From a phage: a DNA stretch of 64,000 nucleotides. The notes under the pieces were generated by a model. It worked only from the letters and a program-made list of their open reading frames with translations. It searched no databases and was not told the origin of the DNA. Shown one piece after another: positions 30,804-44,510 of this stretch (positions are counted from its first letter, which is position 1; every line of letters starts with the position of its first letter). The stretch lies in the sequence record NC_101837.1; one strand, given 5' to 3'. Both the position numbers and the translations under genes were made by a program.

Positions 30804-31019
30804 ATGAAGATAGAAATATTTGGTGGGGCTGACAACACTCGTGGCCTGATTTACCTTGAATTCGATGAATCATACCTGCCAGAGGTGTTAAATATAGACT
30901 CTGTTGCTGAGGCTTTGGGAGTAAACCCTAAAGAACTCCACTCTTGTGCTGAGATCGATGGTTGGGAAGAGACCATGAACATTGATTTCAGTGAAGTAGA
31001 GGATGAACCGCTGGACTGA
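30804..31019 (+). CDS. small acidic protein, family A-like; last plus-strand gene before the non-coding region
   Basis: MKIEIFGG..., acidic C-terminus EVEDEPLD. Confidence 0.45.
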   Translation: MKIEIFGGADNTRGLIYLEFDESYLPEVLNIDSVAEALGVNPKELHSCAEIDGWEETMNIDFSEVEDEPLD

Positions 31020-32549
31020 CACACAATTAGCTGCCCGGCTAAAGTGCTGGAAGCACCTATAACACATCTTTCAACTAAATTTCCTACCACCACAATCACT
31101 TACCTCCCACACATGACTGTTTGCTTGTTTAGTGAGCAGTCATGCCTTGACATTCTTGCCTATCTTGATAAAATTAAGTTCTTCTCTTTTCTTTTACCGA
31201 GTAATTCGGGTTTTCTGTTCTCTTCGGTTTGAAGGGGTATGGAGATACACCTGAGTGAACAGGGTGAACAACCGAACCTTTGGCTATGGCATTAGCATGG
31301 CGAAGCGGACGGGTGACGAAAGAGGGGCCGGAGGACACCAGTCACTGCCATATGATATATGGGTGATAACCTGAAGAGTCTGAATAAGTGTTTAAGTACC
31401 AGTCAGAGGAAAAGGTGAATGGTAGCCGAAGGGGGATGGGGGGTTTCTTGTATCTTTAATTTGTATATTATGTATACACTTGTAAACCAATCTCATCTGA
31501 ATCTGTTTACCACACAAAGCGGATAGAGACAAATATCACCTATTAAACTTGAATTATTTATAGAAAATACCACAACACCAATTAAGTCTTTGATTTTAAA
31601 CACAAATCCTACAGATATTCAACCTCCATATTTAACATACTCGTAACATATTCCATACTCTACCTGTCTGATCAATTTACCCAACTACATCCCCATATTT
31701 TCCCTGTCTGTACTACCCCATCCCCGCCGGGAGTCCCGTCATATCTGGCTTTCCAGCAAATATCACACCCACAAATATCATTGCCTGAAGAGGGTTTCAT
31801 CCCATAATACATGCCTTACATGAAGAGCGCTTCATACACCACGTAAATTTTTTAATTGACCTCCCCGCCGCCGGAGAGGTTGGCTTTTCCCCACACAGAC
31901 CTGAAGAGTCAGCCAGAAATATCTGAACAGGTCCAGTTCTGCCTTGTCATGAGCCGTAGCGACTGGAGTGCTGCCAGGCGGACGGAATGGGAATACTTCT
32001 CATTCTTATAATAATTCTCAAATATCGAGGCAGTGAGGCAAATTAATAGGTGAGGCCGTTCACACAGTGGCACAACATTTGCAATCTATTTTGTGGGGGT
32101 GAATGAGAATACCTATCATTGTGAGAACTGTTATCATTACGGGCAATTTAACATAATACCCATTATGCGCACCACTGGCGATCCATACAGGGATTGATAA
32201 CATGAGTTACAGTTTACGCATATAACAATCATATTTCTTACTATTTGTGTGGGATATAGTTAGCAGCCGATAGATTAGATATTGACCTGTGGACTTCCAA
32301 CCGTCTAGACGTCTAAACGCCCACACAACAAGGATTATACATACATTACTGAATGTAAACAGGGCCGCAAAAATGCTACCATACCAGTTTGTAAATTTTT
32401 CATGCAGCACTTGACAAAGAGAGGAAAAACTTGTCTGACATGCTGGGCATACTTCACACCTTAAACATACTCAACACTGGATACAATAACAATTGTTACT
32501 ATTGCATGCCTCACTGTTCACGTATAGACTATTTGCTCAAAAATGATAA

Positions 32550-37414: not shown

Positions 37415-37735
37415 TTAGTTTGAGAAAACATCGTTCACAATAGCGATCACAATGCCGCCCACCTTGTCACGGTCAACAATGCACAAATCACCATAGATCA
37501 TGTGGTAGTCTGGATGATCTTTCACGGAATAATCAATGAGTGTTTTCTTGTCATCCAGCTTACTAACTTCCATTCTCATAACGATATGAGAATCATCAAA
37601 GGCATTATTCCGAAAAGTCATAACCTGACCGCCAGGGCACCCGGTGATTTCCACCTCCACGCCGTCTACGATCTGACCATCAAAGAAATAAAGATTATTA
37701 GCCTGGATAAACATGATCATTACTCCTTTTTGCAC
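37415..37735 (-). CDS. hypothetical protein
   Basis: 106 aa. Confidence 0.5.
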   Translation of the reverse strand: MQKGVMIMFIQANNLYFFDGQIVDGVEVEITGCPGGQVMTFRNNAFDDSHIVMRMEVSKLDDKKTLIDYSVKDHPDYHMIYGDLCIVDRDKVGGIVIAIVNDVFSN

Positions 37736-37760
37736 TGATTATTTTAACAGGGTTTAAATT

Positions 37761-37805
37761 TACTTTATTGATGGCCCTGGAGTCAAGGCCATCTAAAAAT
37801 AAATT
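37761..37805. repeat. conserved ~45-nt hairpin element, copy 1 (abuts stop codon of 37806-38006)
   Basis: TTTACTTTATTGATGGCCCTGGaGTCAAGGCCATCTAAAAATAA; GATGGCC/GGCCATC 7-bp stem, 10-nt loop. Confidence 0.7.
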
Positions 37806-38006
37806 TTACAGGCCTACAATCTCTTTAATTCGTTTTACTGCTGCCTCAGCGCCTTGAGGGTAAAAATTATGGTAACCAATCACGCGAGTGATACTAATCG
37901 CCGTTTGATGATCTTCATAATCACCTTTAAAGATTTCTTGACCGTCAATCAGCACGGCAATTTTTTCTTCTTTTTTGAAGTTAATAACGCGGATATTGTT
38001 GCTCAT
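37806..38006 (-). CDS. hypothetical small protein
   Basis: 66 aa, AAGGAGAAA RBS. Confidence 0.5.
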   Translation of the reverse strand: MSNNIRVINFKKEEKIAVLIDGQEIFKGDYEDHQTAISITRVIGYHNFYPQGAEAAVKRIKEIVGL

Positions 38007-38146
38007 TTTGTTTCTCCTTTTGGAACTTTGTCTATGCGGTGGGGAGTGTCTCCCCGTTGATTGTTATTATCCATATTCTGGATCGGATTGCAACACTCAG
38101 GGAGAAAAAAATTTGAAAAGTTAGGCCCCAGGGATCGGGGCCGTTA

Positions 38147-38266
38147 TCAATTACTTACAGCGATAAAATACATCCCTACGCCTAACAATATTTCAAGGGC
38201 GATGATCTCAAGCCATACCATAACACGGCGCGCCTTATCGGTGCGGGGCTTATCCTTGGGTGTCAT
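38147..38266 (-). CDS. 39-aa hydrophobic micro-protein (tentative, not in ORF track)
   Basis: MTPKDKPRTDKARRVMVWLEIIALEILLGVGMYFIAVSN; AGGAGG upstream. Confidence 0.3.
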   Translation of the reverse strand: MTPKDKPRTDKARRVMVWLEIIALEILLGVGMYFIAVSN

Positions 38267-38485
38267 CGTCTCCCCCTTTCCTCCTGTTAGCAGTGACGTG
38301 GTTTGCAATGGCCCCCAGGAGTATTATCACCACGCACATTACAAGAAAAATTATCTCTGTCGTTGTTCGATCCATTGTTATAAAATTCCTTAAGATCAGG
38401 CCTGAAAATAAAGCTTTCGTTATTGAATCCATCCCGCCAGGCGGCTGGCTTCAAATCTTCACTAAAGGGGTTAATTAACGTGGCA

Positions 38486-38857
38486 TTATTTAAACGGCTG
38501 GTCCACATATTTTCTATTCCTCTCAAATAGGCGATCCGCCTCAGTTAAACAAATCTCATGGGCGTGATCTCTGGTTTTAGCTTCATCGAAAACCTGTTGT
38601 GCAAGGCTGCAACGTAGGGAGACTGGAAGATCGCTGTAGTAGGCGTTGACAAATGTTTGAGCGTCGTACAGGTCTGAAAATACTTTACCCTTTCTATTAT
38701 TCCCCTTGTCAACAATTGCAAGGATAACAAGTACAATAGTTGCAACCACCCCCAGGAAAATAGATATAATAAACCATAAAAAAGCGGATCTACCCATCTT
38801 GCCAGCGATCCAGGCGTTGAACAAGGCAACTACTACAGCCAAAATAATAAATTCCAT
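38486..38857 (-). CDS. membrane protein (2 TM helices + soluble C-terminal domain)
   Basis: Start at internal Met MEFIILAVVVALF with AAAGAGG RBS. Confidence 0.5.
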   Translation of the reverse strand: MEFIILAVVVALFNAWIAGKMGRSAFLWFIISIFLGVVATIVLVILAIVDKGNNRKGKVFSDLYDAQTFVNAYYSDLPVSLRCSLAQQVFDEAKTRDHAHEICLTEADRLFERNRKYVDQPFK

Positions 38858-38921
38858 TCTATGTACCTCTTTTGCAGTTCTGTTTAACAATAAGGCGGCA
38901 AATATGCCGCCTGTTACCTGA

Positions 38922-39302
38922 TTAAAAATTATCGCCGTAAATCTTTCCGCTTTCTGCCCACACCACCACGCGGGGCATGTTATCCCATACATCTTGTTTC
39001 AGATTTAACGCGTGCAATTCTTCGGTGGTGCTCATACCGGGCACGGGCTGATTGTATACTGCAAAACGACCGCCTGCATAATCATAGGCCAGAGTTAAAT
39101 CACACTGGATCATCTTTTTGATCATGGCGTTAAGCATAGCGTTAGCCGCGTACTGGTCACGTTTTAAAGGCAACTCTTTGATTAGTTTGCGATAGTTTTC
39201 GATATGGTCGCACACTGTTTCACGTGGAAGATCTTTCATATCTTCACGGAATGTAACCAGGTTAAACATAACGGTGTCAATAGCTTTAGTAGTGTTTTTC
39301 AT
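38922..39302 (-). CDS. hypothetical protein
   Basis: 126 aa. Confidence 0.5.
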   Translation of the reverse strand: MKNTTKAIDTVMFNLVTFREDMKDLPRETVCDHIENYRKLIKELPLKRDQYAANAMLNAMIKKMIQCDLTLAYDYAGGRFAVYNQPVPGMSTTEELHALNLKQDVWDNMPRVVVWAESGKIYGDNF

Positions 39303-39393
39303 GATGTTTTCCTCTTTGTTTTGTGGGGGGGCAAGTCATCTCGCCCCTTGAGTTTTTAATATAGCAGGTTTTTAGATTATTGCAACACTTTAT

Positions 39394-40017
39394 TTATGAA
39401 AAACTCATCTCCCCATATTCATCCACATCAAACCGCCAATCATTGGCTTCAATAAGGCCGATCAGGTTTTCGGTAGTAAACTGTTCAAGATAGGCCTCCT
39501 CCAGGTCTACGTAAACCTTGCGGGATAGCTCCCGTACCGTCTCGGTGATCAGCTCTTCCAGCTCTTCAACTTTGTCCTCTTGCTTGGTGGTCAGGTCTAG
39601 CCAATTAGTATCGATGCACCCTCCTATTGTGTTTTCGTGATGATAATGGCTAAACGGGATACGTTCAACACTGGCTGATAACTCGCCATCGTGCATTGTG
39701 CCGAACAAGTGACGAATTGATCGGAACTTGGTCAGGGCCTTTACTTTACGCAAGAATTTTTCTAAATCCACGTTTTCAGCACTGATTGACGCGCCATCGC
39801 CTTGACACCAAAAGCCGGACCAACGTATTTCGGTATCTTCAAGGCCGTACTCTGGAAAGACATATTCTTTATAGTGTTCAATTACACTTTCTGCAAAAAA
39901 ATTATCCCCGCTGTGTTCTTCTCTTTCGCGGACCATTTCAATAGCTTTTTCTTTTTGTTCGTCGGTCAGCACGTCGAAAGATAAATTGTAACCTGTGGTA
40001 ATGTTAACGGTGGTCAT
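39394..40017 (-). CDS. hypothetical acidic protein
   Basis: 207 aa, Asp/Glu-rich, AGGAGAAAA RBS. Confidence 0.5.
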   Translation of the reverse strand: MTTVNITTGYNLSFDVLTDEQKEKAIEMVREREEHSGDNFFAESVIEHYKEYVFPEYGLEDTEIRWSGFWCQGDGASISAENVDLEKFLRKVKALTKFRSIRHLFGTMHDGELSASVERIPFSHYHHENTIGGCIDTNWLDLTTKQEDKVEELEELITETVRELSRKVYVDLEEAYLEQFTTENLIGLIEANDWRFDVDEYGEMSFS

Positions 40018-40091
40018 GATATTTTCTCCTATTTTCTTTGTTAGTGGCGGGAAGTTTTCCCGCCTGTGTGTTTAAGTATACTTATCGAGAT

Positions 40092-40352
40092 TTACTTGTC
40101 AACACTATTTTTTAAATTATTGTGGCGTAAAATGTTCAAGATCTCTTCAACGTCATCAACACGGCGGCAATTTTTAAACGCTACCAGTTGCCCCAGTATT
40201 TTAATCACTGGACGGCCTTGCCAGTGCCCTTGGAGAAAGCGAGCTTTAACTTTATCGGTGGAACTATCACGCCACCAAATGGCCTTGTTGTTGCAGTAGT
40301 AAAAATTATTCAGGACAACATCAACTTTATCAAAATTTTTTAATTTACGCAT
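40092..40352 (-). CDS. hypothetical small protein
   Basis: 86 aa, AAGGAG RBS. Confidence 0.5.
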   Translation of the reverse strand: MRKLKNFDKVDVVLNNFYYCNNKAIWWRDSSTDKVKARFLQGHWQGRPVIKILGQLVAFKNCRRVDDVEEILNILRHNNLKNSVDK

Positions 40353-40394
40353 GGCGTTTACTCCTTTCTCTCTTTGATGTGGTTAGTATAGCTA

Positions 40395-40422
40395 ACCTGT
40401 TTAAGATGTCAAGCTTTAAATA
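40395..40422 (-). promoter_or_regulatory. sigma70-like promoter (minus strand)
   Basis: Minus strand TTGACA-16 nt-TATACT. Confidence 0.5.
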
Positions 40423-40560
40423 AAATCACTGTCAATGATATTTTTAACGCCATAAAACGGCCCTAAGCGATGTTTTCAGGTTAAAGGGGGGCGATTGCAT
40501 AGGTGGGGCCTTTTTGGCGCTTACAGGGCCAACCGGGGGCGCTATTCGTAGGATAGAAAT

Positions 40561-40585
40561 AAAAAGCCCCGCACAATGGCGGGGC
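40561..40585 (-). terminator. intrinsic terminator (minus strand)
   Basis: Minus strand GCCCCGC-cattgt-GCGGGGC followed by TTTTT. Confidence 0.65.
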
Positions 40586-40593
40586 GTTGGTTG

Positions 40594-40815
40594 TTATTTG
40601 CCTTTGTGGCGGTATCGTTCCGCCTGTCGTTCACGTTCCAAAAGCAGGCCCGGTAATTTGCGATCATAATGATTCCGCCAGATCTTCCCAAATCTTTTTG
40701 GCTTATTCAGTTTATTGTTGCGCTGGCGGCGTTCCGGCAGCTCTTCGGAAGCATGAGATCGCTTTACAATTTTCTCGAAATTAATTTTCATATATTCCCC
40801 CCTTGCTAACTTCAA
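40594..40815 (-). CDS. hypothetical basic protein
   Basis: 73 aa, Arg/Lys-rich. Confidence 0.45.
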   Translation of the reverse strand: MKLARGEYMKINFEKIVKRSHASEELPERRQRNNKLNKPKRFGKIWRNHYDRKLPGLLLERERQAERYRHKGK

Positions 40816-41134
40816 TATTGGCCTGAATAGCCCGGATACGGCGCTTTATAACTTCCTGATCTGTGTGGTCGTATCCCCAAAAGTCTACAATTTTTGCGCC
40901 CCCCGCCTCCAGGCGGTATAGTGTTTCCTGCATTTTGTAAGCCGGGATCGGTCGCGGTGTTACTTGGTCACCTTCTTTATTTTTATACTTTATAATATAA
41001 TCTTCGTTATCGTTGAATGCCCAAAATGGATATTCTGCAAGGGCGGTACTTCCTCTTTCCTTTTTATCCTGGATCTTATTTACAATTAAAGCCGTAGCAA
41101 TAGCGCCAATAATAAAACTTGCCCCGCTGATCAT
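40781..41134 (-). CDS. membrane-anchored protein
   Basis: N-terminal TM SGASFIIGAIATALIV. Confidence 0.5.
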   Translation of the reverse strand: MISGASFIIGAIATALIVNKIQDKKERGSTALAEYPFWAFNDNEDYIIKYKNKEGDQVTPRPIPAYKMQETLYRLEAGGAKIVDFWGYDHTDQEVIKRRIRAIQANIEVSKGGIYEN

Positions 41135-41208
41135 GTACTTTCTCCTTTCATGGTGTTAATAAATTATCTTTATAGATGGCCCTGCAACCAGGACCACCGA
41201 AAAAATAA

Positions 41209-41454
41209 CTATTTCACAATGCCTACAAAACAGATCCCGCCTTCACCTATATAAGCAATATCGGTCACTTTATAACTTGTCAAGATCTGCTTATTTAGTT
41301 CATTAATAAAATCGGTCATTGCGTTGGTGTAGTTGTCTTCCGTGTCTAAGGCATAATCCCAGGTGTACACCTTTTTACGTCCGAAGCCTTTTACCATGAT
41401 ACGGGCGCTTTTGGTGTTGGTAGGGGCATAATATTTGGTGATTAGTGCTGCCAT
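41209..41454 (-). CDS. hypothetical small protein
   Basis: 81 aa, TAGGAG RBS. Confidence 0.5.
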   Translation of the reverse strand: MAALITKYYAPTNTKSARIMVKGFGRKKVYTWDYALDTEDNYTNAMTDFINELNKQILTSYKVTDIAYIGEGGICFVGIVK

Positions 41455-41500
41455 GGTTTTAACTCCTATGCATTAGTTCAGTGTTAACAGTATAAAGTTT

Positions 41501-41545
41501 ACTTTATTGATGGCCCTGGTGTCAAGGCCATCTAAAAATAAGCTT
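41501..41545. repeat. conserved ~45-nt hairpin element, copy 2 (abuts stop codon of 41544-41885)
   Basis: GTTTACTTTATTGATGGCCCTGGTGTCAAGGCCATCTAAAAATAA. Confidence 0.7.
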
Positions 41546-41885
41546 ACTCGTTTTCTTCCAGCTCCGCAAGCTCTTCTTTTGCTTCTTCTAACTCTGTCTG
41601 TAATTCCTGGTATTCTTCATCGTCCTCAATATCCAGGCTGTCGATGTAGTCGCTAAATCCGCAGCGGTAAGCGATAGGATCTAGCTCCTTGAGGATACGC
41701 GACGGAAGAAAAGAAATGTTTCCGATCATAATTTCGCCGTAGATCTCGTCTAACCATTCATCATAGTTTTCGTCGTACTTGTCCTCGTCGATTTCAAAGT
41801 TATCGATCTTATTCTCAAGGTCTGCGATCTGTTTTTTCAGTTCAGCGATCTGCATAGCTTTTTCTGAGGCGGTCATAGTAGTCAT
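41544..41885 (-). CDS. hypothetical acidic coiled-coil protein
   Basis: 113 aa, Glu-rich. Confidence 0.5.
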   Translation of the reverse strand: MTTMTASEKAMQIAELKKQIADLENKIDNFEIDEDKYDENYDEWLDEIYGEIMIGNISFLPSRILKELDPIAYRCGFSDYIDSLDIEDDEEYQELQTELEEAKEELAELEENE

Positions 41886-41937
41886 GGTGTTTTTCTCCTT
41901 TTGTGTGTTCTGGGAAGTTTTCCCGTTTATGTGCTTA

Positions 41938-41965
41938 TTATATCGATTTAAGTTAGCTTGTCAAT
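41938..41965 (-). promoter_or_regulatory. sigma70-like promoter (minus strand)
   Basis: Minus strand TTGACA-16 nt-TATAAT. Confidence 0.5.
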
Positions 41966-42084
41966 TAAAAGTTTAAGAAAAATTTTGCGACACCGTTGGC
42001 GCTACCCATCAACATTTGCGCCAGGATGTACCCAATGATGCAAACGATGATGGTTACCTTTGTGTGCTGGCGTGTAGTGCTCAT
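41965..42084 (-). CDS. 39-aa hydrophobic micro-protein (not in ORF track)
   Basis: MSTTRQHTKVTIIVCIIGYILAQMLMGSANGV...; GGAAAAGGAGGC RBS. Confidence 0.4.
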   Translation of the reverse strand: MSTTRQHTKVTIIVCIIGYILAQMLMGSANGVAKFFLNF

Positions 42085-42120
42085 CTTTAAGCCTCCTTTT
42101 CCGCTCAACTGTGGTTAGTT

Positions 42121-42165
42121 TACTTTATTGATGGCCCTGGTGTCAAGGCCATCTAAAAATAAACT
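42121..42165. repeat. conserved ~45-nt hairpin element, copy 3 (abuts stop codon of 42165-42560)
   Basis: TACTTTATTGATGGCCCTGGTGTCAAGGCCATCTAAAAATAA. Confidence 0.7.
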
Positions 42166-42560
42166 CAATAAGTTTTTAGTACTTTCCCGTCCAATCTGTC
42201 AAGCTGGATCTCGATAGCTGCAGAAAACCTATTGTAAACCACATCGCCCAGGGAGTCCAGCCAATCTATGACGTTATATACCTGCTCTTTATTCTTGCAA
42301 GTCCGGATCCGTTTCATTACGTAAGACGGATCAATATTAGCGCTCTCGTTGTTGTGGTCCTGCGCCTGGCCTGCTGCGCTAGTTATAGATTTTACAACCA
42401 CCTGAAAGGGCTTTAAGGTGCCTTTTGCGTTCATCTCACGCGCTTTTGCGGCGCGGTTGTTATATGTTACACAACGGCGGCAAATGTTGACCAAATGCAT
42501 ATCAATAATTTTTTCATCGTTTGCCAGTTCGTTCATGATGCGGCGTACGTTCTTATTCAT
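42165..42560 (-). CDS. hypothetical protein
   Basis: 131 aa. Confidence 0.5.
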   Translation of the reverse strand: MNKNVRRIMNELANDEKIIDMHLVNICRRCVTYNNRAAKAREMNAKGTLKPFQVVVKSITSAAGQAQDHNNESANIDPSYVMKRIRTCKNKEQVYNVIDWLDSLGDVVYNRFSAAIEIQLDRLDGKVLKTY

Positions 42561-42608: not shown

Positions 42609-42636
42609 AGTTTACTTAAATTTTGCAGCGTGTCAA
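42609..42636 (-). promoter_or_regulatory. sigma70-like promoter (minus strand)
   Basis: Minus strand TTGACA-16 nt-TAAACT. Confidence 0.45.
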
Positions 42637-44039: not shown

Positions 44040-44510
44040 TAGAAATTTTAAAAATCCATTTCTGAAAACGAAAAATCGATTTCGTCCCCAAAAATTTCAG
44101 GTTGAGAGCCGGAACGATTTCCAGAAAATCCGATTCAGAAAACGAAAAACAGGTCGAGTACTGAGAAATTTATCGAGAAAAATTTTCAGAAAATCCAAGC
44201 CCTGAAATGAAAAGTAGATCGAGTACCTGGAAAGCTGCACCGCAACTTCAAGATAGCGGTTAGATTGTTACCATAGAAGGTCAAGGGTAAGTGGAGGAAG
44301 TTCTAGTAGAGGGAGGTTAGCATGTGTGGGAAATCTATAATGGTGGCCTGGAATATGGTGCAAACGATAGGATGAGTTATTCAGCTTGTCGCGCCTACTC
44401 TGAAAAATCCATTTTAGTTTTCGATCCATTTTCTGATTTTCTAAGAATTTTAAAATATCCAGCCCGGTGAAATATCAAAAGGAGGAAATCCATTTTAGAA
44501 ATCCCCCTTA
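44040..44510. repeat. degenerate direct-repeat array (core GAAAATCC(A/G)(A/T)TT, at least 5 copies) in a 1.1 kb non-coding region
   Basis: aaaatccatttctgaaaacgaaaaatcga / cagaaaatccgattcagaaaacgaaaaac / cagaaaatccaagccctgaaatgaaaag / gaaaaatccattttag / ggaaatccattttag. Confidence 0.6.

Follow-up and report, generated by a model that had tools for sequence, protein, structure and literature searches.

What does a short hairpin-forming repeat do when it recurs directly behind the stop codons of neighbouring phage genes? The question is posed by a 64,000-nucleotide (nt) stretch of phage DNA (sequence record NC_101837.1; referred to below, at its full length, as the window), in which an initial annotation made from the letters alone had pointed to three near-identical copies of a hairpin element, each abutting the stop codon of a minus-strand gene, and to one degenerate relative. 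We consider this element, with rather better than even confidence, to be a composite, dual-coded intergenic cassette similar to the promoter-early stem-loops (PeSLs) of T4-like phages, in which an RNase III-type RNA hairpin, an early promoter and a recombination repeat are combined. RNA structural constraint, strand specificity, promoter consensus, transcription-unit context and natural recombinants support this view directly; promoter firing and RNase III cleavage are the two steps that we infer.

The pattern GATGGCC-N10-GGCCATC was found four times in the window at up to two mismatches, against 0.12 matches expected, and the 44-nt consensus three times at up to one mismatch, against none expected, which bears out the three copies and one relative noted initially. 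A repeat search yielded a single family of four 49-nt copies, designated A–D, with C as the reference (lengths of genes are given in amino acids, aa):

Element A: 37757..37805, minus strand; 92% identity to C; two-tier hairpin with loop ACUC; predicted −35 TTGACT at 37786-37781 and −10 TAAATT at 37762-37757; starts 1 base past the TAA stop of the 66-aa gene
Element B: 41162..41210, minus strand; 69% identity to C; two-tier hairpin; CTGGTT at the −35 position; overlaps the TAG stop of the 81-aa gene
Element C: 41496..41544, minus strand; reference of the repeat family; two-tier hairpin; predicted −35 TTGACA at 41525-41520 and −10 TAAACT at 41501-41496; the 113-aa gene ends in TAA, whose final base opens the element
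Element D: 42117..42165, minus strand; 98% identity to C; predicted −35 TTGACA at 42146-42141 and −10 TAAACT at 42122-42117; the 131-aa gene ends in TGA, whose final base opens the element; outer stem pairs 42165-42156 with 42126-42117, inner stem pairs 42153-42144 with 42139-42130; tetraloop ACAC at 42143-42140

All four copies start at the stop codon of a minus-strand open reading frame (ORF) or at most 1–2 bases away from it. They lie where the initial annotation had placed them, although its starts fall 4–5 nt inside the true 49-nt element.

The 6-kb stretch around the repeats shows 98.2% identity to Escherichia phage WalterGehring and 90–97% identity to about 120 other rV5-like phages; by this sequence comparison, the source of the window is an rV5-like Vequintavirus of the subfamily Vequintavirinae. 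A BLAST search detected the element in 120 phage records, all of them rV5-like, with about three detectable copies per genome, and its occurrence in related phages, on which the initial annotation had made its proposal depend, is thereby established. A covariance-model search of the window returned only A–D, with 69–80 bits, the next score being 13.7 bits, and a search of rV5 coordinates 1–80 kb with the same model returned no copy. The element is absent from 5,426 complete E. coli genomes and is therefore not a host repeat of the repetitive extragenic palindrome (REP) or bacterial interspersed mosaic element (BIME) type, while the lack of a covariance-model match in the early region of Salmonella phage PVP-SE1, which represents the sister genus, makes it genus-specific. 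A pattern scan of IMG/VR with CAGGGCCATCNATAAAG gave 18 loci, only three of which, on two contigs that are rV5-like by sequence, hold the element, the others being chance matches in coding sequence. No family was assigned to any copy in an Rfam 15 scan of positions 36.0–44.5 kb at E ≤ 1, which gave a weak unrelated match at 39300-39372; a full-text literature search for the element sequence or for rV5-like intergenic stem-loops found nothing relevant, and neither the promoter and terminator tables of the rV5 paper nor the records of rV5, EdH4 and Alma carry an annotation at the element sites.

Among the related records, 17 are labelled as Campylobacter phages (MG0656xx, e.g., C12, A147 and D1; host C. 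jejuni), with 95–97% identity to E. coli rV5-like phages across the region. There is reason to doubt these host labels, which could stem from contamination or mis-assignment.

RNA hairpin and predicted promoter within the element

In 5'-to-3' order along the minus strand, copy D consists of TGA-G-TTTATTTTT-AG-GATGGCCTTG-ACAC-CAGGGCCATC-AAT-AAAGTAAACT, then AACCACAGTTGAGCGGAAAAGGAGGCTTAAAG-ATG. The minimum-energy fold of the coding-strand RNA is identical for A–D and represents a two-tier hairpin of about 20 base pairs (bp). Its outer stem comprises 10 A/U bp, the first of which in C and D involves the last base of the stop codon; a 2x3 internal loop follows, and then an inner stem of 10 G/C bp (GAUGGCCUUG/CAGGGCCAUC, with one U.G), capped by a tetraloop. 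The hairpin originally described as a 7-bp stem with a 10-nt loop thus exists, but its inner stem is really 10 bp long with a 4-nt loop and is nested in a second, A/U stem of the same length. Folding energies of the window copies lie between −20 and −24 kcal/mol (z-scores between −5 and −7) and reach −28.6 kcal/mol among the B copies, which are the most stable of all.

The four sites were compared across 15 genomes, and an alignment of their 26 distinct versions provided comparative support for this fold. Standard pairs occupy 99.0% of the 520 pair cells, versus 35–57% when the partners are slid by 1–3 columns. Four pairs of the outer stem have changed on both sides (7-53, GC/AU/GU; 8-52, UA/CG; 10-50, UA/AU/GU/GC; 11-49, AU/UA), four pairs of the inner stem alternate between Watson–Crick and G.U, and the U.G pair 12-48 is invariant across the aligned copies. 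Judged from the aligned B copies, the series A-U, G.U, G-C at pair 10-50 is a textbook compensatory path. The structure is strand-specific, since G.U on the coding strand corresponds to an A.C mismatch on the complement: the coding strand is 99.0% paired with a mean minimum free energy of −24.0 kcal/mol, compared to 86.5% and −14.3 kcal/mol for the opposite strand. On this comparative evidence, the hairpin is selected as sense-strand RNA, and the same strand of single-stranded DNA is also compatible with the data.

The same 49 nt contain a feature that had not been noted in the initial annotation. The tip of the inner hairpin in C and D reads TTGACA, the sigma-70 −35 consensus; a −10-like TAAACT (TAAATT in A) lies 18 nt downstream, within the 3' arm of the outer stem, and the T-rich 5' arm occupies the place of an UP-like AT tract. 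In A, C and D, the boxes TTGAC(A/T/G)-N18-TAAA(C/T)T are preceded by TTATTTTTA and the stop codon, and a Shine–Dalgarno sequence (SD) and an ATG are found 31–43 nt past the element. A promoter scan scored TTGACA-N18-TAAACT of C and D at 10 of the 12 consensus positions, and TTGACT-N18-TAAATT of A at nine of the 12. Copies A, C and D thus probably carry early sigma-70 promoters, with predicted activity, for the next gene. The TTGAC pentamer is invariant in all 19 distinct A/C/D sequences, whereas its sixth base (A/T/G) and the following loop base vary, and A/C/D keep a U.G pair where the −35 hexamer has its first T, a position held by C-G in the promoter-less B. The invariance of TTGAC and the retention of a destabilising U.G hint at a genuine promoter, and we favour this explanation. 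Other early promoters in the window are of the TTGACA-N16/17-TATAAT-like type; promoter P194 of the rV5 paper is TTGACA-N16-TAAACT, with the same −10 as C and D. The promoter search in that paper was limited to spacers of N15–17, and three early promoters missing from present annotations of the rV5 family are predicted.

Copy B had been regarded as degenerate. The relative is indeed present, but the label is misleading, since B forms the most stable hairpin and only the promoter has been lost. The −10-like hexamer of the B copies decays from GATAAT to GATAGT and GACAGT, each step improving RNA pairing. By these sequence comparisons, B is a hairpin function without a promoter rather than a decayed copy, and its retention indicates an independent role for the hairpin.

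The hexamer TTGACA occurs 97 times on both strands of the window, versus about 31 expected from length alone, and many of these sites are preceded by A/T-rich sequence and followed, 16–17 nt downstream, by a −10-like hexamer. Sigma-70 promoters of the rV5-like genome probably outnumber the 33 recorded for rV5.

Transcription units and the function of the hairpin

The genes neighbouring the four copies are short minus-strand ORFs. The features that define the transcription units are as follows:

42609..42636, minus strand: early promoter P42636, TTGACA-N16-TAAACT; rV5 P194 homolog, upstream of D
42165..42560, minus strand: 131-aa ORFan, rV5 gp189 homolog, upstream of D
41965..42084, minus strand: 39-aa gene, within the C–D cassette (41545..42116)
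41964-41937, minus strand: promoter P41964, TTGACA-N16-TATAAT, within the C–D cassette
41544..41885, minus strand: 113-aa gene of the C–D cassette, ending at C
41209..41454, minus strand: 81-aa ORFan, served by C, then B
40781..41134, minus strand: 117-aa ORFan downstream of B; SD AAAGGAG; ATG 28 nt past the element
40566..40585, minus strand: intrinsic terminator, GCCCCGCCATTGTGCGGGGC then TTTTTATTTC; the first canonical one downstream of D, C and B
37806..38006, minus strand: 66-aa ORFan upstream of A
37415..37714, minus strand: 99-aa ORFan downstream of A; SD AAAGGAG; ATG 43 nt past the element

The flanking proteins have no Pfam family, and the PHROGs that match them are of unknown function. 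Homologs of the 81-aa ORFan product with 30–46% identity occur in Seuratvirus/Nonagvirus-type coliphages (the siphoviruses CAjan, Skure and JenP1), in Pseudomonas phages KIL and PPpW-4 and in Klebsiella phages; their presence in unrelated phages is consistent with a horizontally mobile accessory gene.

A terminator scan called canonical minus-strand terminators at 40585-40566, 38912-38893, 38142-38124 and 37013-36984, and none on this strand in the intervals P42636–40585 and P38093–37013. All four hairpins are therefore internal to polycistronic units, one with the order 131-aa gene, D, 39-aa gene, P41964, 113-aa gene, C, 81-aa gene, B, 117-aa gene, 65-aa gene and terminator, and the other with the order 66-aa gene, A, 99-aa gene, 116-aa gene and terminator. 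Read-through transcripts starting at P42636 would contain hairpins D, C and B. Between the strong terminator at 40585-40566 and the next gene lies a 240-nt stretch (40353-40593) with no convincing ORF and with tandem TTGACA at 40435 and 40412, at the place of which the rV5 record annotates two tiny overlapping ORFs, gp182 and gp183.

The position of the hairpins resembles that of the early RNase III sites of phage T7, which form a dispersed family of about 45–50-nt hairpins between the early cistrons of a polycistronic RNA. The T7 early intergenic gaps were delimited by the coding-sequence coordinates of its record and folded. We take these gaps to be the sites R0.3, R0.5, R1, R1.1 and R1.3 named by Dunn and Studier in 1983. 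The label R1.1 was cross-checked by the GCAA tetraloop mentioned in PMC1540722. The folded gaps have an A/U-rich lower stem that starts at the stop codon or adjoins it; above this come an asymmetric internal loop, a 9–10-bp G/C upper stem and a 4–5-nt loop. The R1 fold, (((((..(((((((((....)))))))))...))))), is identical to the element in its geometry of a 2x3 loop plus tetraloop. E. coli RNase III substrates typically comprise about two helical turns, and internal loops limit the enzyme to a single bond, the cut leaving a 3' hairpin that shields the upstream RNA from exonucleases (PMC1540722). The intercistronic hairpin of the element, with 10 + 10 bp around a 2x3 internal loop, has the length of a two-turn helix and matches the folds of R1 and R0.5; in A, C and D, but not in B, a U-A/U.G step reminiscent of the canonical distal box stands beside the loop-closing pair, as in the R1.1 fold. 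The intergenic gaps with the T7 sites also contain minor E. coli or T7 promoters. The likeness is one of fold, without sequence homology, to sites that are classical RNase III sites, and the promoter hexamers of T7 lie outside the hairpins, unlike those of the element.

Taken together, the hairpin is quite probably a processing or stability element of some kind, while for cleavage by RNase III itself, which is proposed by analogy, we see slightly less than an even chance. An RNase III-type or RNA-stability role, one of the candidates put forward initially, was a reasonable proposal and gains strength from the covarying coding-strand helix and the T7-like layout, so far as the analogy holds. 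The following mechanism could be proposed. In transcripts reading through from upstream early promoters, the 49 nt from the stop codon would fold into the helix of about 20 bp, which most likely acts between cistrons as a signal for both processing and stability, in the manner of the T7 early RNase III sites; one cut in the internal loop would leave a protective 3' hairpin on the upstream cistron, and the minimum role of the hairpin would be to block 3' exonucleases. At the DNA level, the AT-rich tract, the −35 TTGACN at the hairpin tip, the N18 spacer and the −10 TAAAYT in the 3' arm of the outer stem would serve A, C and D as the promoter of the next gene, whereas B would retain the RNA function only. 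The near-identical copies are also substrates for homologous recombination, by which the genes between them are excised.

Only tentatively do we go further and suggest that the 49 nt are read twice, as an early sigma-70 promoter in DNA and as an RNase III-type hairpin in read-through RNA only, serving in addition as a portable junction for the exchange of ORFan cassettes, and that this PeSL-like system arose independently outside the T4-like phages. If the sequence is indeed read twice, the upstream message of each cistron, with its protective 3' hairpin, would be separated from the downstream messages initiated at the promoter, and this would be the first covariation evidence for a PeSL-like stem-loop as an RNA-level feature and not a terminator. 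Four candidate mRNA processing sites are defined to the nucleotide.

Several points weigh against the composite cassette proposed here. Independent compensatory events are few (about five), and the copies of one genome have been partly homogenised by gene conversion; the pattern, as read from the alignment, is nevertheless consistent and directional. The loop-adjacent UA/UG step is not kept in B, which has C-G there. The authors of the rV5 paper list no promoter at the three sites, neither the 18-nt spacer nor the TAAACT −10 is optimal, and the −10-like hexamer could be partly a by-product of the A-rich stem arm. A literature search found no transcriptome study of the genus, and promoter firing and cleavage are thus our inference.

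Of the other explanations, the most serious retains the promoter and recombination roles and sees in the hairpin a passive 3'-exonuclease barrier, a REP-like mRNA stabiliser with no endonucleolytic processing. A hairpin of −20 to −29 kcal/mol immediately past each stop codon is what such a barrier calls for, and no RNase III determinant is verifiable in the element. The inner G/C stem would suffice for this purpose, yet the outer A/U stem is kept by four doubly compensated pairs, which suggests that a length of about two turns matters, and the asymmetric internal loop, which is conserved, corresponds to that of the T7 RNase III sites. The maintenance of a weak outer helix argues that total helix length matters, in which case RNase III would fit better than a simple exonuclease barrier, and we regard the barrier as unlikely.

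Less probable still is a terminator or attenuator insulating adjacent early cassettes, as the authors of the PeSL work proposed for their elements, or a promoter-coupled terminator. A PeSL stem-loop placed ahead of lacZ cut expression as much as rrnB T1 did (PMC2839356), and promoter-coupled terminators likewise put the −35 in stem-loop DNA (10.64898/2026.08.19.745784). The polarity of the flanks in the element is the reverse of that of a terminator: the inner stem is followed by the A-rich AAUAAAGUAAA (continuing (C/U)U), its 5' flank is the one with the U-rich tract, and the same holds for both strands because the element is near-palindromic. No U-tract follows the inner or the outer stem, in line with the initial observation that the hairpin lacks one on the coding strand and is not a canonical terminator, and the scan that called the four canonical minus-strand terminators nearby called the element at no copy. 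Judged by these flanks, the element cannot be an intrinsic terminator.

The initial annotation had also suggested a binding site for a phage regulator. An operator over the −35 hexamer, by which a dimeric phage or host regulator shuts off the early promoters, could be imagined from the palindrome GATGGCC-N10-GGCCATC that flanks this hexamer. At the DNA level this suggestion is unsupported and appears very improbable, since the natural variants GGTGGTCC, GATGGTC and CTAGGG lose DNA symmetry while keeping G.U pairing of RNA on the coding strand only, B retains the structure with no promoter to regulate, and the covarying outer stem reaches far past a typical operator. Equally far-fetched is a site for a dedicated protein or a folded single-stranded DNA, i.e., a recombination or replication signal like the integron attC or the hairpins of HUH transposases: strand-specific folding with G.T tolerated, the stem/spacer/stem geometry and cassette loss exactly at the repeats would fit it, but neither an integrase nor an HUH enzyme turned up, the deletions are fully accounted for by homologous recombination between identical 49-bp repeats, and all copies are sense-oriented inside transcripts and start at stop codons. 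The action of an HUH/IS200-type single-stranded DNA transposase on the hairpins was rejected because neither of the two rV5 genes annotated as 'transposase' has such a Pfam domain. A pseudo-antitoxin of a type III toxin–antitoxin system, as in the rV5-like phage PhiTE (PMC3475682), was rejected because those RNAs are tandem repeats, whereas the copies of the element are dispersed single hairpins, and translational bypass at a stop-codon hairpin in the style of T4 gene 60 because every downstream gene is provided with an SD and a start codon ATG.

Recombination between copies

Use of the copies as deletion junctions for a two-gene cassette is a further feature that was absent from the initial annotation. 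In phage magaca, a 621-bp C–D segment comprising one repeat, the 113-aa gene, P41964 and the 39-aa gene is missing. A single chimeric element remains, with a D upstream flank and a C downstream flank that are both 100% identical. The same D/C chimeric junction was found in ime, phiWec189, ECP32 and an IMG/VR contig (UViG L014), which together with magaca gives at least five genomes. Since phiWec189 and ECP32 carry the other allele of the upstream gene (83–84% nucleotide identity), the junction occurs on two alleles. Most other genomes have the C–D arrangement intact. As read from these junction sequences, recombination between C and D is what deleted the two intervening genes in at least five genomes.

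Identical loop variants are shared among copies within a genome, e.g., C and D of the window, and suggest gene conversion. A mosaic-boundary test with 300-nt flanks was merely suggestive, except for the clear D/C chimeras. The 5' untranslated region (UTR) between A and the ATG of the 99-aa gene (37715-37756 in the window) exists in two alternative versions among the genomes compared (magaca, FFH2, TP14 and navn), …taatcagtgcaaaaaggagtaatgatc and …taccacgcagttaacaaggagtgatagac, and the …taccacgcagttaacaaggagtgatagac version resembles the UTR downstream of D, which makes a small mosaic patch from about 10 nt past element A.

These findings explain a recurrent deletion hotspot that affects the 39-aa and 113-aa genes and bear on the genome stability of phage preparations and on the choice of insertion sites for engineering. 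The rV5-like phages are widely used therapeutic and biocontrol coliphages and include members of the BASEL collection.

A separate group of repeats was observed on the plus strand at 44051-44236, in a gene-poor stretch, where three direct repeats of about 47 nt (AAAATCC...GAAAACGAAAAA...) are spaced by 65–74 nt. Three 67-nt repeats of similar composition occupy the corresponding place in PVP-SE1 (30986-31194 of the sequence analysed). These repeats may be iterons, an origin-like or a regulatory array, and their location is perhaps the 'non-coding' stretch of the rV5 genome map.

Comparison with known promoter/stem-loop systems

PeSLs were described in the T4-like phages RB49/phi1, KVP40/nt-1 and T4/PST (Arbiol et al. 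2010, PMC2839356; Comeau et al. 2014, PMC4122927). Their stop codon lies in AT-rich sequence and is followed by a sigma-70 promoter, a stem-loop possibly overlapping the −35/−10 boxes, an SD and an ATG; they are enriched among ORFans and give rise to indels by recombination between copies (PMC2839356, PMC4122927). Reporter assays of promoter and attenuator function and the generation of mini-circles also belong to the description of PeSLs. The element described here is likewise a repeated intergenic motif among ORFans of a hyperplastic early region, all four copies lying in the 37.7–42.2 kb ORFan cluster. Copies A, C and D, and not B, have the AT tract with the stop codon, sigma-70-like boxes, an SD and a start codon. 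The stem-loop overlaps the promoter, with the inner stem over the −35 and the outer stem over the AT tract and the −10, and recombination between copies removes the ORFans that they flank, as shown by the chimeric D/C junction and the loss of 621 bp.

The differences from PeSLs are equally clear. The phage is a Vequintavirus and not T4-like, the stem is GAUGGCCUUG/CAGGGCCAUC and not polyG/polyC, and there is no sequence similarity between the two kinds of element. A two-tier helix of about 20 bp extends across the whole promoter, and covariation points to selection of the sense RNA; the flank polarity excludes intrinsic termination, which was suggested as the function of PeSLs; in one copy the hairpin stands without a promoter; and only four copies are present per genome. 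With promoter-coupled terminators (Fletcher et al. 2026 preprint, 10.64898/2026.08.19.745784), the element shares stem-loop DNA that doubles as the −35 of the next promoter and couples adjacent units. Those sequences terminate and have a T-tract between the hairpin and the −10, where the element has AATAAAG, which is A-rich and contains no T-tract.

Most other early sigma-70 promoters in the window are followed, 3–5 nt past the predicted start site, by a GC-rich hairpin, the four strongest of which have −13 to −15 kcal/mol and the rest are weaker. On the minus strand, the pairs of promoter and hairpin are P42636 with 42598-42580, P41964 with 41925-41911, P40102 with 40064-40046, P39385 with about 39347-39325 and P38093 with about 38058-38041, in addition to P36269 and P34748. 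A CA-rich leader and an SD follow these hairpins, with no U-tract, and they look like 5'-terminal stabiliser hairpins, although a plus-strand terminator scan wrongly flags them. An analogous promoter/hairpin/SD cassette is repeated in PVP-SE1 (L030, families D1/D3/D4). These cassettes of the window and PVP-SE1 share with the element the early region and the logic of promoter, stem-loop and SD, but their hairpin lies downstream of the start site, in the promoter's own transcript, while that of the element lies upstream and is found in read-through RNA only.

The idea of promoter/stem-loop cassettes that regulate and shuffle accessory genes is thereby extended beyond T4-like phages to an unrelated group of coliphages. 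The present case is cleaner than that of PeSLs, in that the stem-loop cannot terminate, the constraint on the sense RNA is shown comparatively and one copy separates the hairpin from the promoter. The element is real and conserved, and among the known systems it is a fresh, strand-resolved example of a PeSL-like cassette rather than a new category.

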